In this document: positions 296-38,109 of the stretch, in pieces | Layout: each line of letters opens with the position of its first letter | Numbering within the stretch: the first letter of the stretch is position 1 | DNA from: Octopus vulgaris | Taxonomy: Eukaryota | DNA: 64,000 nt | Assembly (NCBI GenBank): GCA_951406725.2 | Contig: OX597815.1 | Location: 87,420,001 to 87,484,000, forward strand | Direction: 5' to 3' | Made by a program: the position numbers and the translations under genes | Notes under the pieces: generated by a model | What the model saw: only the letters and a program-made list of their open reading frames with translations | What the model was told of the DNA's origin: nothing | Databases searched by the model: none

Positions 296-3063
296 GTAAG
301 TTTAACGCAAAAAATATCTGTACAGAACTACAACACTCAATGGTTTTTCTTTATATCTTGAGATGACACTCACTCATTGTTTACTAAATTCCATTGTGGT
401 TTCTTCTCTGCGATCTCTCAAACAAACCACCCACCACCTTTTCTTCATATCTCAAAGTTATGTGGAACGGCATGAACATCTCAGTTTTCATGTTATCTTT
501 TATGTGTACGAGGTTCTCGTAAAGGAAGTCATTATGCATCACCTTTTACCTATGGCCATATTTTGATTCAACTCCTCGCATTTCCTACGTTTATTTAGAG
601 AATTATAGCATAGCTTAGGAAATATTTAATGAACACACCCGCCACCCATATATATATACATATATATTATCTATAAATATGTGTGATTGGGAATCATTCT
701 GTCATCTTAAACGATATTGAATCCTTGTCATTTAGAAAACATCTTCAGGAAATTCTTGATGAAAACAGATTTTTGTGAATACGTGTTTTTATAAGTGTAC
801 ATATTTTATACATGTATTTCACCTTCTCAACTAGATAGTGTGAAAATGCATGTGTGGGGGTATATATAGATATAAGAACAAGCACCTTAGACGAGTAATA
901 ACTTCTTTTTTTTTTTTGTACTTTAATTGAAACCATTTCACTTTTATAACGTGTCTGTTTGGTGATTGTCAGCGGTTCGGAAATATGGGTTCCATCAGAT
1001 TCGTGTCTGTTTTGATATTTCGCCAAGTTCGAAAGCTTCAATGATACTCCAACGATTCAATTTGCTCCAAAACATCAACATAAATATTTATGTAAAACAT
1101 AGATGTGTGTGCATGTACTCACTAAGTTTAAGAAATATTGAATACCTTCCAACGCTCTATGAATTGTTTTTTTTTTAACTATCTGAAGACAGGAGCCAGT
1201 ATTACAATTAATTAACGTACTCTTTTCTTCATTAGCTTCGTTGTCTTTGTTAAACCACGGCGTCTTTTTGCCTATTAATTGTACGGGTAACTGTGATTTA
1301 ATATCCGTGATCATTTGGCTCGGCGTGCAGCACATTAATCTTTAGGTTTCGATTAAAGCTGATAGTCAGTCAAATAACTAAGTAGAAACCAGAAGTCCGG
1401 TGTTTCAGACATGTGAAGACCACAGTATGCATACTCCGACAGCGTGTGCTTGTTGCATTCTCTCCGTTGTCCAGTTTGTTTTCGTTTACCTCTTGTAAAC
1501 CCCGATCGAGGAAACCTGCGATTAAAGGCATTCAAGCCATTACCATCACGTCTTTTTAGGGAGATCTAGTATTACATTATCAATGTATTCATCCCTTATT
1601 TATTGATAGTAGCAAGTGATATAAGGGAAACTTGGTCGCGATCACTTAGAGGCTCCTCTGTAAATTCTAGTGGTGACTACATTAGATGTGAGCAACATTA
1701 CAACGGTATTTATGTTGGTATGCATCTCATCACAATATTTGAAAGTAATGACGGTAATGCTACCAGTGATATTTTTGCGTTCCTCGAAAAAGGGTAGTAT
1801 TGATATTGCAGTAATTTGTAGCGTTTAGTAGATGTGTTTGGGGATGATTGAACACAGCATATACGGAATGTCAAGGACTCTGTATTTGTATGTAGGTAAT
1901 TCATAGCATTTGTTTTTTATGTGCATGTATATGTTTATATTGTTGTTGCTTCTGCTTTGATCCCTGACTCTTAAGGCTTTCATCACGTTAACTAGCGCTT
2001 AGTTTTAGCTTATGTGGAAACCAGTAGCTGAAAAACAAAACCCTTAGTAATCCTGGATCACAATTTATACTATCTTTTTTTCAGTTTTGTCTTTTATGTC
2101 ATTCCTAGCTTATAACATTACGATTATTTATCATCATCGTCATTATCATTCATTGTTAGCGCCCGTTTTTCATGCTATCATAGGTTGGATGGTTTGACAA
2201 AAACCAAGAAGCCAGAGGACTGCACCAAACTCCAATGTCTGCTTTGACATGATTTTTACAGCTGGATACCCTTCTTAACAACAACCACTTTACAAAGTGT
2301 AGTGGGTTCTTTTTATGTGGTGTTGATACTAGTGAGATCATGAACTAACTTGCAAGACAATACCCCTCAACTGAGGAGGTTGTGGTATTAAGGGAGATGG
2401 ATTTATGCTAGGTGATGAGTGGTTAAAGTATGGTAGAGGGATAGAAACAAGTGTTTTACAGTAGAAGAGGTACATGGCTACCCTAATTGGAAGAGGAGAG
2501 AAGATAGTGAAGAAGTGTTAGGGCATACTCTCAACTTACAGGAAGCTGAATGTAAGAAAAATGTTCCAGAAGATTGGATTGGTAAGTTCGCAAGAGTGGC
2601 AGATGAATAAAAATGGAGATAGCGCTGTACACTTGCAAGGTGAACACAATTGGGGTGGTTAGGAGGAAAAGGTAGAGGCATTAGGAGGCAGTACAGGTAA
2701 TGTAGAGTGTGTGTAGTGTGCAAGAGATGCACAGCACCAGGGATGAGGTCAGAGGTCCATAGGGGTGGAAATAGTGAGATAAATCTGGAATTTCTTTTCT
2801 AGCTCTGATATAGAATCTGCTTTGAGAACAAGATCATCAACATATAGTAGTTCCCAGGAGCTGCCAGTCTTGAATTCCTCTGTTATGGCTTCACGGACTC
2901 TGATGGAAAAGAGGGAACTGTGGACTGAGCCCTGATGAATGCCTGCCTGTACACCAAATTGTTTACTGTACTTGTAGTTAATACAGTTCTATATTTAAGA
3001 GATGAGGAATTACATACATTATTTATATTTGACGGATATTTGTCCTCATCTTGTTTGTTATTA

Positions 3064-3108
3064 ACACAACGTTTTGGCTGATATACTCTCCAGCCTTCAT
3101 CAGGTGTC
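3064..3108 (-). ncRNA. Minimal type I hammerhead ribozyme motif (one core substitution)
   Basis: ACAC CTGATGA A GGCTG-loop-CAGCC aAAAC GTT GTGT; helix II is perfect, and GAAAC has become AAAAC. Confidence 0.7.
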
Positions 3109-3395
3109 TTGGGGAAATTTCGAACCTGGGTTCTCATTCCTAAGGTATTTTTCAATGTTATTATTACTATTATTATTCAGGTCACTGCCTGGAATCGAAC
3201 TTGGAATCTTGGGGTTAGTAGCCCACACTCTTAACCACTATGCCATGAGCATATGGCATAGTGGATAGTGGTTAAGAGCGTGGGTTACTAACCCCAAGAT
3301 TCAGAGTTCAATTCCAGGCAGTGATCTGAATAATAATAATAATAAAACATCAAAAAATACCTTTGGAATGAGAACCCAGTTTTGAAATTTCCCAA

Positions 3396-3440
3396 GACAC
3401 CTGATGAAGACAAGAGGGTATATCAGCCGAAACGTTGTGT
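3396..3440 (+). ncRNA. Minimal type I hammerhead ribozyme motif (helix II damaged)
   Basis: ACAC CTGATGA AGACAA..CAGCC GAAAC GTT GTGT; the core boxes are intact, with a palindromic AACGTT. Confidence 0.7.
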
Positions 3441-5086
3441 TAACAACAAACAACATGTGGACAAATATCTGTCAAATATAAATAATGTACTTGTTATATT
3501 TCAACTTACTAACAGCATCTCTGTACATGGCCTGTACATCTTTCACAAGCCACTCATCTACCCCTTGCCTCCTCAGAGCCACCATATCACACAGTGGGGT
3601 ATTCTATCAAAGGATTTCTCTAGATCAACAAATGCCAAGTGTAACAGTTTGTTCTTAGCTAAATACTTCTCTTGCAGTTGTCTGACTATAAAAATAGCAG
3701 TAGTGCTTCTCCCCAGAGCAAAGCCAAATTGCATTTCATCTAGCCTAGTTCTGTTCCTAATTAGTTTATAACTCTCTCCATAATTTTCATCACCTGGTCC
3801 TATAATTTGATGCCTCTATAATTATTTCTGTCTAAGGAATATCCTTTACCTTTGTAGCAACTAATTTTAATGCTGCTACACTTGTCACTAAGGATTACAC
3901 CTTCCTCAGGTGCAGTCCCAGGAATTTTTTGAAGGGAAGACACAAGGTCAGAAGGGTATACAGTTCCAAAAGAAAAGGACATAATAACATTATTTAGAAG
4001 GGTGCACTTCCTTTTTTGAGGATGGCACATGCCCCTCAGGCTATCCCCTGTTCCTGAATAATCTGATTAACTGAGTGACTATCAAATATTTTGAGCATCT
4101 CAGCAGTGACTCCTGATGGCCCAGAGTTTTTTCCTGTTTTCATATCTTTAATTGCCTCAACTACCATACTGCTGTCCACTAGGATAGCTAGTTCCTCTTT
4201 TTGGTTTACTGGATGCAGGCTCCCTTTATCATATTCATTCTCCACATTTAATAGCTTTGCGTAGTAACTCTTCTATACCTCTTTCTTGTCAGAATCACTA
4301 AGTGCAAGCTCACCATTATCCATCTGTACAAACTTCTCTCTCACAACATCTTGATTTTCTCTCACACATGGCCTAGCAATCCAAAACACCTCAAGTCTCT
4401 GATCTTCATGTAAAACATTAGCTAGCCTCTCCCTTTCTGCTTCTGTCCTAGCTATATAAACCTGGCATCTAGCTTCCCTATCTAGCTATCTGGTATGATT
4501 CTTTGCTAATCCCAATTTTCCATTCTTTCCAGACTCATCTCTTCTCTTTTATAGCCCTCTCAACCTCACTGTTCCACCACCATGCCACTCTTGGTCTAGC
4601 AGTGGCTTTGCTGCAACCATAAATTTGGTCTGTCACCCTCCATAGATTGTAAGAACTTCAAGTTGTCCTCCACACCATATGTCTGTGTCTCTTCCTCCTC
4701 CTTGTCAAAAGCTTCATTAAGAACATCTCTAAATCTCTGCCCATTTGAAAGATCCTTGAGCTTCCACAATCTTCTTTTCTATATCAGCTTGCATCTCTTA
4801 ATCCTTCTGGTCCCAAGCTTGAAATCACTAACCACTAATCTATGTTGAGTTGTAGTTGTACATTCTTCACCTTGGAAAGATTTGCATTTACAAACATTCA
4901 CCACTCTATCTGTCTGATGAGGATGTAGTCAACCTGGCTAGTGTGCCCACCAGATTGATAAGTGATCAGATGTTGGCAGGTTTCCAGAAGTTAGTGTTGT
5001 AGACATGTCAGCCATGTGTATCATTATATATATATATAATATCCCTCCCTCCCTTCCTCCCTGCATCCATCCATCCATCTATCTAC

Positions 5087-36089: not shown

Positions 36090-36271
36090 TCAAAGTGGTG
36101 CCCCAGCATGGCCGCAACTAATGAATGAAACATTAAAAAAAAGACATATGCAAATTTTTGTGAAAACTCATTGAGAATTTGTACAGCTGTTTCCAGACAA
36201 ACAAGCAAACATCAGAACATTTACGTGTGTATGTATACATGTCTAAATGTGTATATGTATGTATATCTATA

Positions 36272-36483
36272 TATATGAATTTTTTGCATAATGAGATAAA
36301 ACACCAAAGCTGTATAGATATTAGAGCATTTATAGATAGAAGGTCTTACAGCTGTTTCTAGGATATTAATTAATAATATCCCTATAATAACCTAGAAACA
36401 GCTGTGAGACCTTCTATCTATAAATGTTCTAATATCTATACAGCCTTGTTTTTTTATCTCATTACACAAAAAATTTGTATATA
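36272..36483. repeat. ~90-bp inverted repeat carrying the 3' half of a hammerhead (GAAAC AGCT GTA)
   Basis: 36272-36362 pairs with 36391-36483. The minus strand reads GGATATT-loop-AATATCC TA GAAAC AGCT GTA AGACC; the CTGANGA box is missing. Confidence 0.8.
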
Positions 36484-37779: not shown

Positions 37780-38109
37780 GTCCCCATCCAGTCCTTGCAA
37801 AGATCCGGTCAGAATATGAGGAAGTGAAATCCTTGTTACCGGATGTCTCTTCACCAGAAAACAAATCTGAGCCTGATGGCACTATATACGATAAAGACAC
37901 TGAAGAAGATACTGAAACACTGGAGACTTTGAGTACTCCTGCATCCACTGTAGATAACAGCCCTTCCCATAGCAATCAACAAACTCCATATAAAGTTGTC
38001 TCACTCACAGACCTAGATTTACTTCCAACTAAAGAAATTCTAAATCAGCAATCCTTAGAAAAAAGTGATGGAGAAATTTCAGCAAACAGTTTGGACCTAA
38101 AATTTTTCG
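37780..38109 (+). CDS. CCDC149: CCDC149 acidic S/T-rich exon (GPHPVLAKIRSEYEEVKSLL...ANSLDLKFF)
   Basis: ttcttccag acceptor phase 1, 330 nt open, G|gtaagc donor phase 1; compatible with the flanking exons. Confidence 0.85.

Follow-up and report, generated by a model that had tools for sequence, protein, structure and literature searches.

The 64,000-nucleotide stretch of Octopus vulgaris DNA analysed in this work (contig OX597815.1, positions 87,420,001 to 87,484,000 of the forward strand; hereafter the window) contains a head-to-head palindrome that splits an old long interspersed nuclear element (LINE) of the RTE type. A repeat search detected the inverted repeat at 3015-3489 (478 nt at 87.9% identity) with three arm matches: (i) 3015-3119/3385-3489 (90%); (ii) 3161-3241/3265-3345 (91%); (iii) 3112-3159/3346-3393 (90%). 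Read outward from approximately position 3245, the order in each arm is a tRNA-like head, an (AAT)n linker, a hammerhead ribozyme motif and an AT-rich tail. The arms were aligned to a column-majority model of the family in which the first G of the tRNA-like segment is numbered 0. Based on this alignment the palindrome extends from about 2979 to 3490, with the two arms overlapping by 4 nt (CCAT/ATGG at 3243-3246; Table 1). The 6-nt spacer arrangement at its centre is also present at another locus of the family (L163).

Table 1. Features of the palindromic insertion and its target in the window (pLTR stands for pseudo-long terminal repeat, RT for reverse transcriptase, ORF for open reading frame and TSD for target-site duplication).
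Feature	Position	Strand	Basis or remark
Old RTE-type LINE, RT region, 3' side of break	2785-2981	-	75-84% identical to other copies, with colinearity as far as ...AGTTAA
Old RTE-type LINE, 5' side of break (pieces 3486-3906 and ~4080-4831)	3493-4831	-	
Left TSD copy, exact 9 bp at 2967-2975, probably 13-14 bp	2967-2980	+	family TSDs 7-17 bp
Right TSD copy, first 5 nt also element sequence	3486-3496	+	
Left arm, Penelope pLTR, model +6 to ~+286, long 3' end with tail	2979-3246	-	model alignment
Right arm, Penelope pLTR, model -4 to +250, short 3' end without tail	3243-3490	+	model alignment
Centre of the palindrome, a microhomology junction (CCAT / 6-nt spacer / ATGG) at the inferred RNA start	3243-3252	.	
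Optional Penelope tail, ~31-37 nt, left arm only	2979-3015	-	model alignment, family 3' ends
Minimal type-I hammerhead, left; helices I and II of 5 and 6 bp, G12A lesion in the core (3075)	3063-3108	-	
Minimal type-I hammerhead, right; core intact (3401-3407, 3429-3433), GUU site after 3436, helix II damaged	3396-3441	+	
Predicted ATG of Penelope ORF, left	3135-3137	-	model in frame through hammerhead and tail; homologous N-terminus in protein P0014
Predicted ATG of Penelope ORF, right	3368-3370	+	element model
(AAT)n linker, left	3158-3177	-	sequence reading
(AAT)n linker, right	3329-3345	+	sequence reading
tRNA-Arg-derived head, left; A box 3245-3235, B box 3200-3191	3179-3246	-	
tRNA-Arg-derived head, right; A box 3254-3264 then 7-nt duplication, B box 3306-3315 mutated	3247-3327	+	

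The palindrome, its tRNA-like heads and hammerheads, and the interruption of the RTE LINE had been described in a first-pass annotation of the window and were borne out by the sequence and the repeat search. The A box, the CT-ACT-AA loop, the B box, the (AAT)n linker, the CTGATGA/GAAAC core, helix II and the GUU triplet were likewise found as described, with the qualification that the A box carries CpG decay in both arms of the window; in the family it reads TGGCGTAGTGG. The model alignment also confirmed that the lesions of the two arms are complementary. The left arm has a mutated core together with intact boxes and an intact helix II. In the right arm the core is intact, but helix II is damaged, C has changed to A in the B box (GTTCAA) and the A-box region carries the duplication. 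A 37-nt string covering the hammerhead had 1,352 exact matches in the genome assembly (G000, 2.8 Gb) and its reversed control none, which rules out chance.

Both flanks of the palindrome are colinear across the break with 11 other copies of one RTE-type LINE. The 9-bp duplication noted previously (2967-2975/3486-3494) is exact, and five of its nine bases double as element sequence. The RTE homology, which ends at 2981 on the left and resumes at 3493 on the right, indicates that GTTA (2977-2980/3493-3496) was duplicated too. The simpler reading is therefore probably that 13-14 bp were duplicated and that the right copy lost 3 nt. The limits of the insertion given above replace those noted previously (2976-3485).

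Each arm is almost certainly the pLTR of an autonomous Penelope-like element (PLE) residing in the same genome, and this includes the head. One locus, L027, continues past the tail into a peptide ending in NHLTFLCRCRD; a search with this peptide yielded 304 first-look candidates that translate as one Penelope-type N-terminus, and the RT segment behind that N-terminus yielded 569. Among 30 RT-anchored loci, 18 carried the head sequence downstream on the same strand, and the other 12 were interrupted or truncated within the 1.5-kb flank or showed the body alone. In the reverse direction, 30 loci were anchored 13-31 nt upstream of the head, and every one of them entered the head by reading (27 by a strict pattern); at least three of these loci resemble segmental duplicates. 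The order of the unit is thus ORF stop, 30 nt, head, (AAT)n, hammerhead and tail, from where the sequence continues in frame into the next ORF. The column-majority model has an open frame of 782 codons with its stop 30 nt before the head. In a tandem model this frame reaches further upstream, across tail and hammerhead, as far as an ATG at +127, giving 835 amino acids in total. The modelled protein has the RT motifs DKG, RPIVS, GSPLSP, RYVDD and FLDV, and the natural piece L081 matched Pfam RVT_1 (E=1.8e-8). At the C-terminus of the model a GIY-YIG/CCHH motif order (VY..C.C..YKG..R..EH..H..H..E) was read by eye; Pfam GIY-YIG did not match L081 and gave E=0.23 on the homolog P0014. By every structural test run, apart from the profile search for the endonuclease, the element is an endonuclease-bearing (EN+) PLE, a placement based on domain order, with no Zn-finger linker seen between RT and EN.

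Six database proteins were 57-75% identical to the model ORF. One of them, P0014, shares the hammerhead-spanning peptide (TPDxG...PKRCVNN), implying that the predicted hammerhead core and GUU site are old. A candidate 38-nt GT..AG intron in the tail was dropped, given the frame that is open from the upstream ATG and the hammerhead-spanning peptide of P0014. Partial tandems occur at L066, L076, L079 and L058, which have hammerhead, tail and ORF upstream and in most cases a pLTR downstream. Recurrent junctions exactly 115 nt into the ORF, leading back to the pLTR at +13 or about +115, were seen at L031, L032 and L035 (1500-1880) and, around the ORF start, at L033, L034, L037, L038, L043 and L044. 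They could represent small non-autonomous subfamilies with internal deletions or a third site of priming; the query ended at that point, and part of the pattern may be due to selection.

The size of the family was estimated from exact string counts in the genome scaled by the fraction of copies in which the respective string is retained (27/72 for the head, 13/31 for the sequence upstream, 10/156 for the hammerhead). A 19-mer inside the head had 5,629 exact matches and a 19-mer just upstream of it 894, a 6.3-fold drop. After scaling, head-bearing pieces number about 15,000, pieces that include sequence upstream of the head about 2,100, and hammerhead-bearing arms about 21,000. The (AAT)n linker has often grown to hundreds of bases or turned into AAC or GAT repeats (many of the loci L087-L176 and L449-L488), by which the family seeds microsatellites across the genome.

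Head and hammerhead are consistently linked, as the first-pass annotation had proposed. Among 49 head-anchored matches, 48 led by reading into one and the same B-box/(AAT)n linker, the body was present within 600 nt in 38, and none had a different body. The annotation had taken the arms for a separate non-autonomous SINE (short interspersed nuclear element)/retrozyme hybrid that is mobilised by Penelope machinery. Mobilisation by Penelope machinery held up, and the autonomous Penelope that was expected to share the 3' segment is the element modelled above; the tail of the arm is the start of its ORF, with no LINE-like 3' end. The separate status of the arms did not hold up. An independent polymerase III-transcribed family with a hammerhead, mobilised in trans by Penelope in the manner of SM-alpha of Schistosoma, would account for the excess of short over ORF-linked copies (about 7 to 1), the sharp 5' end, the A and B boxes and the hammerhead. 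However, head and body belong to the autonomous element, and ORF-linked (43) and head-start (72) pLTRs form one sequence pool without a fixed or diagnostic site, the short set having been selected partly by similarity. Moreover, solo copies do not contain the ORF-start region that the anole Penelope protein requires on its template (PMC11167929), and the head-to-tail monomer arrays typical of SM-alpha are not the rule among 90 loci. This explanation is largely refuted and very improbable; the short copies are likely dead by-products rather than a self-propagating SINE. SM-alpha and Sj-alpha share with the octopus element a polymerase III-type promoter followed by a hammerhead, provided that the head is a promoter. 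They are non-coding, often tandem and equipped with canonical hammerheads, whereas the octopus unit forms the terminal repeat of an autonomous element that codes for protein (PMC6765202). With tRNA-derived SINEs the arms have in common a tRNA head containing A and B boxes, 5' ends that fall shortly before the A box and a high copy number; unlike these SINEs they do not form an independent family, have neither a LINE-derived 3' end nor an A-rich or simple-repeat tail, and occur as inverted pairs.

The proposed likeness to SM-alpha or retrozymes was also not supported by the hammerhead. As judged from its motifs it is of the ordinary minimal Penelope type: an extra base follows A9, G10.1 pairs with C11.1, helix II has 6 bp and helix I 5 bp, and a palindrome (AACGUU) replaces helix III, which has no loop. 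The minimal hammerheads of metazoan PLEs (Cervera and de la Pena 2014) agree with it in the extra base between 9 and 10.1, in G10.1-C11.1, in a long helix II with a short helix I, and in palindromic 15.2-16.2 without helix III, and the octopus hammerhead differs from that set by its GUU triplet (PMC4209133). The available text of that paper reports pairs of PLE hammerheads on opposite strands 100-700 bp apart and mentions neither tRNA nor polymerase III (PMC4209133). Hammerhead identification rests on motif reading: Rfam searches of the window, the element and 12 loci called neither a hammerhead nor a tRNA, with matches limited to hairpin or microsatellite artefacts, and helix II alone was no more stable than shuffled sequences (z -1.2).

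Of 90 hammerhead-anchored loci on contig 1, 57 were head-to-head pairs, 30 were solo or same-strand (mostly single) and three were of other types. The 3' ends (93 ends) were distributed bimodally at about -25 to -34 and 0 to +9 relative to the tail end. After exclusion of 14 pairs with an end outside both length classes, 41 of 43 pairs combined one long and one short end, i.e. had the 31-nt tail at one end only, and two were long/long. Target duplications in the family were 7-17 bp, and at least 9 bp were duplicated in 21 of the 57 pairs as compared to 0.7% of mismatched pairs. The arms of 55 pairs shared 12 of approximately 195 derived non-CpG changes, slightly more than the shuffled mean (P=0.006; three of them possibly alignment artefacts). 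Given this small number, most arm divergence arose after insertion. The insertion in the window is a textbook Penelope product; hammerhead, inverted pairs, one-end tail and duplications are all standard, and the same inverted-pair layout has been described for Penelope elements (PMC8557442). A more complex case was L121 (contig C1, 79.96 Mb), where the palindrome reaches into flanking DNA on both sides and a third, long-tailed fragment closes the insertion with a 10-bp duplication.

The head is derived from tRNA-Arg, an identification based on motif reading and comparison with the genome's own tRNAs. It is identical to tRNA-Arg at 50 of 73 positions, and tRNA-Arg, with scores of 65-69, was the best of seven isotypes sampled (Val, Gly, Lys, Leu, Tyr and Ile at most 54.5). 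In the model both A and B boxes are intact, with the B box at tRNA spacing, and the acceptor and anticodon stems are decayed. ARAGORN did not call a tRNA on the head. At a lowered threshold it found a tRNA shape there, which was not used as the same relaxation produced many false calls in unrelated DNA. Dense single-isotype tRNA arrays were met elsewhere in the genome (C2, 211.89-211.91 Mb; C3, 160.09-160.12 Mb; C4, 51.9-52.1 Mb; C25, 30.58-30.62 Mb), including Arg-ACG repeats at a spacing of about 206 bp and Val-type repeats at about 168 bp.

The 5' ends of copies pile up at the head. Among 71 head fragments in hammerhead-anchored loci, 26 started inside the head, 35 between -10 and +5, none between -20 and -11, and 10 further upstream; the corresponding numbers in a head-anchored sample (n=49; about five loci shared with the former) were 11 inside, 32 at the boundary and 6 upstream. 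Hence, of the fragments that reach +5, 35 of 45 and 32 of 38 (78% and 84%) end within -10 to +5, as compared to about 3% expected per 16-nt window from the loss rate upstream of the head (0.21% per nt; 28 ends in 13,192 nt). Segments bearing the ORF start obey the same boundary: of the eight that reach the head, six start there (L335 runs 900 nt into the ORF) and two run upstream. For this reason the element RNA appears to have its 5' end at this boundary, 10-15 nt before the A box. Such a spacing between start and A box is typical of type 2 RNA polymerase III (Pol III) promoters.

Two processes other than transcription initiation could place a boundary here. Long RNAs might be cut by RNase P at the tRNA-like segment, in line with a second peak of ends exactly at tRNA +1 (9/35 and 6/32 in the two samples), or the cDNA might snap back at a small palindrome (-7 to +4) and stop, in line with the fold-back signature TA that precedes 15 of the 16 ends called at -7 and is not template sequence. 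But RNase P cleavage could not produce the ends found upstream of +1 (22 of 35 and 17 of 32), and the head has no cloverleaf fold. The hairpin amounts to only -2.1 kcal/mol, and five equally stable hairpins in the ORF lack a pile-up (28 ends); fold-back is thus more likely a consequence of the RNA end than its cause. Both processes are quite improbable as the source of the boundary.

We propose that the tRNA-Arg-derived segment serves as the element's own Pol III promoter, and assign a probability of roughly 0.62 to this reading together with the following mechanism. The RNA would start 3-8 nt upstream of the tRNA-like segment of the 5' pLTR, probably by Pol III, and run into the ORF. RT would then use nicked target DNA for priming at two sites inside the element, which lie about 123 and 154 nt past the predicted ATG. 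Priming in the 5' pLTR would let RT run off the RNA 5' end and give a SINE-like copy of 250-290 nt, and priming in the 3' pLTR would give the rarer ORF-bearing copies. If both staggered nicks were primed, one per site, the cDNA 3' ends might be joined by microhomology, or by fold-back at the small palindrome at the RNA start, into a head-to-head pair. The centre of the palindrome in the window and in L163 fits such a joining of cDNAs at the head. The hammerhead, in its minimal GUU form, is predicted to need a dimer or protein and would have stayed uncut in the RNAs behind these copies. TTTT is absent from the 2,664-nt unit of the element model, i.e. Pol III could read the whole unit.

Several observations weigh against this proposal. 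The head no longer folds as a tRNA, the 26 fragments of the first sample that end inside it do so at +6 to +33, and the 10 that run upstream indicate that read-through RNAs also exist (L314, L382). The absence of TTTT has limited weight (P=0.01 in mononucleotide and 0.03 in synonymous-codon shuffles, 0.07 and 0.22 in Markov models of orders 1 and 2); GGGG is likewise absent from the unit, and five of 54 related ORF stretches without a tRNA head lack TTTT as well. After these controls, TTTT avoidance was rejected as proof of Pol III. A single full-length copy (head, ORF and 3' pLTR) was not found among 101 ORF-start segments, and the unit is a column-majority model. The test for changes shared between arms leaves twin priming and fold-back unseparated. 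Finally, a start within the pLTR is normal for Penelope, and the element of Drosophila virilis uses a TATA-less LINE-like promoter with a downstream promoter element (DPE) (PMC2377424); the sharp start alone therefore does not name the polymerase.

This last point leads to an unlikely alternative in which Pol II transcribes the same pLTR pair, using a promoter inside the pLTR at a place that an old tRNA-derived insertion happens to share, the A and B boxes being passengers or only positioning the start. Penelope and Chlamys have their known starts within the pLTR, and these starts are of a Pol II-like kind (PMC2377424, PMC8557442), a capped RNA readily explains translation of the 835-amino-acid ORF, and the TTTT test is weak. 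On the other hand, the A and B boxes are both intact and at tRNA spacing, with the start 10-15 nt upstream of the A box, and kept boxes with decayed acceptor and anticodon stems are what selection on promoter boxes would leave. In addition, TTTT occurs within 120 nt upstream of six of nine related pLTR hammerhead sites and not upstream of this one. RNA data did not discriminate between Pol III and other transcription: three raw RNA runs (labelled as a related species) and a contig set, all unstranded, showed no start pile-up at the head or the cut site of copy L062, and the loose ends of these reads mirrored genomic junctions and were uninformative for or against Pol III.

A stronger version of the Pol III proposal is tentative and rather doubtful. 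It holds that the autonomous coding element is run by Pol III altogether, having captured a tRNA-Arg promoter and purged terminators from its 2.66-kb unit, and that this unit would provide template and uncapped mRNA as well as some 20,000 run-off SINE look-alikes.

Relatives of the element were seen at 78 loci from metagenome and genome collections, none of them in viral contigs; the homologs with 57-75% identity are known as protein only. In related loci where the region between ORF end and hammerhead is visible (distant relatives, 26-58% identical), no pair of A and B boxes was present there. L306, L307 and L308 carry Penelope-like ORFs and pLTR hammerheads in assemblies titled as bacterial metagenome-assembled genomes, and are most likely binned contigs of animal hosts.

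The closest described parallel is Poseidon of Anolis carolinensis (PAc; Frangieh et al. 2024), whose optional tail was traced in vitro to two internal start sites of reverse transcription (PMC11167929). Common to PAc and the octopus element are a single ORF with RT (followed at the C-terminus by GIY-YIG in PAc and by a putative GIY-YIG read from motifs in the octopus element), a hammerhead over the ORF start, an optional tail of 30-40 nt, AT-rich targets and partial tandems (PMC11167929). The predicted ATG lies 70 nt before the cut site in the octopus element versus 26 in PAc, and no tRNA-derived segment is described for PAc in the available sections of that report, whereas the octopus element has a sharp 5' boundary at A and B boxes (PMC11167929). 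In D. virilis the Penelope transcript likewise starts inside the upstream pLTR from an internal promoter (Schostak et al. 2008), which differs from the octopus element in being TATA-less and LINE-like, with a DPE and an intron in place of A and B boxes and a frame open without an intron (PMC2377424). A repeat annotation of octopus lists 190 Penelope-like families and, in the portion available, gives no detail on tRNA heads (PMC13282606). A Penelope element with a tRNA-derived head was not found reported in the literature; the Repbase and Dfam consensus libraries lay outside this search, and the family may already be deposited there. The unusual part is the tRNA-Arg-derived A/B-box module at the start of the element's RNA, the remaining features being known for Penelope.

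Promoters are known for very few PLEs, and those compared here are Pol II-like. A tRNA-derived start module in an autonomous element would represent a new promoter design for the class. If the element were run by Pol III throughout, it would offer a route by which SINE-like and SM-alpha-like elements arise inside an autonomous element, and an mRNA made by Pol III would be a natural case of protein coding by this polymerase. The 41 pairs with one long and one short end provide a countable footprint for second-strand synthesis, which predicts that the nicks are primed at different internal sites. Automated annotation would mislabel such arms as tRNA SINEs or hairpin elements.

Other inverted repeats were present in the window. 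A second head-to-head palindrome (86%) lies at 36270-36483, with arms carrying GAAAC followed by palindromic AGCTGT, and is probably a pLTR fragment pair of another Penelope family with no tRNA-like head in view. An inverted repeat of 122 bp at 5746-5867/5943-6064 (98% complementary, 75-bp spacer) showed no hammerhead core. At 37900-37918, CTGAAGA...GAAAC might be another minimal hammerhead; this pattern occurs four times in the window as compared to 1.0 expected. Finally, a perfect 119-bp inverted repeat at 42486-42604/43087-43205 with a 480-bp spacer and (TA)n flanks contains a GAAAC-CGGT motif in its arm, and is possibly a young Penelope-type insertion.

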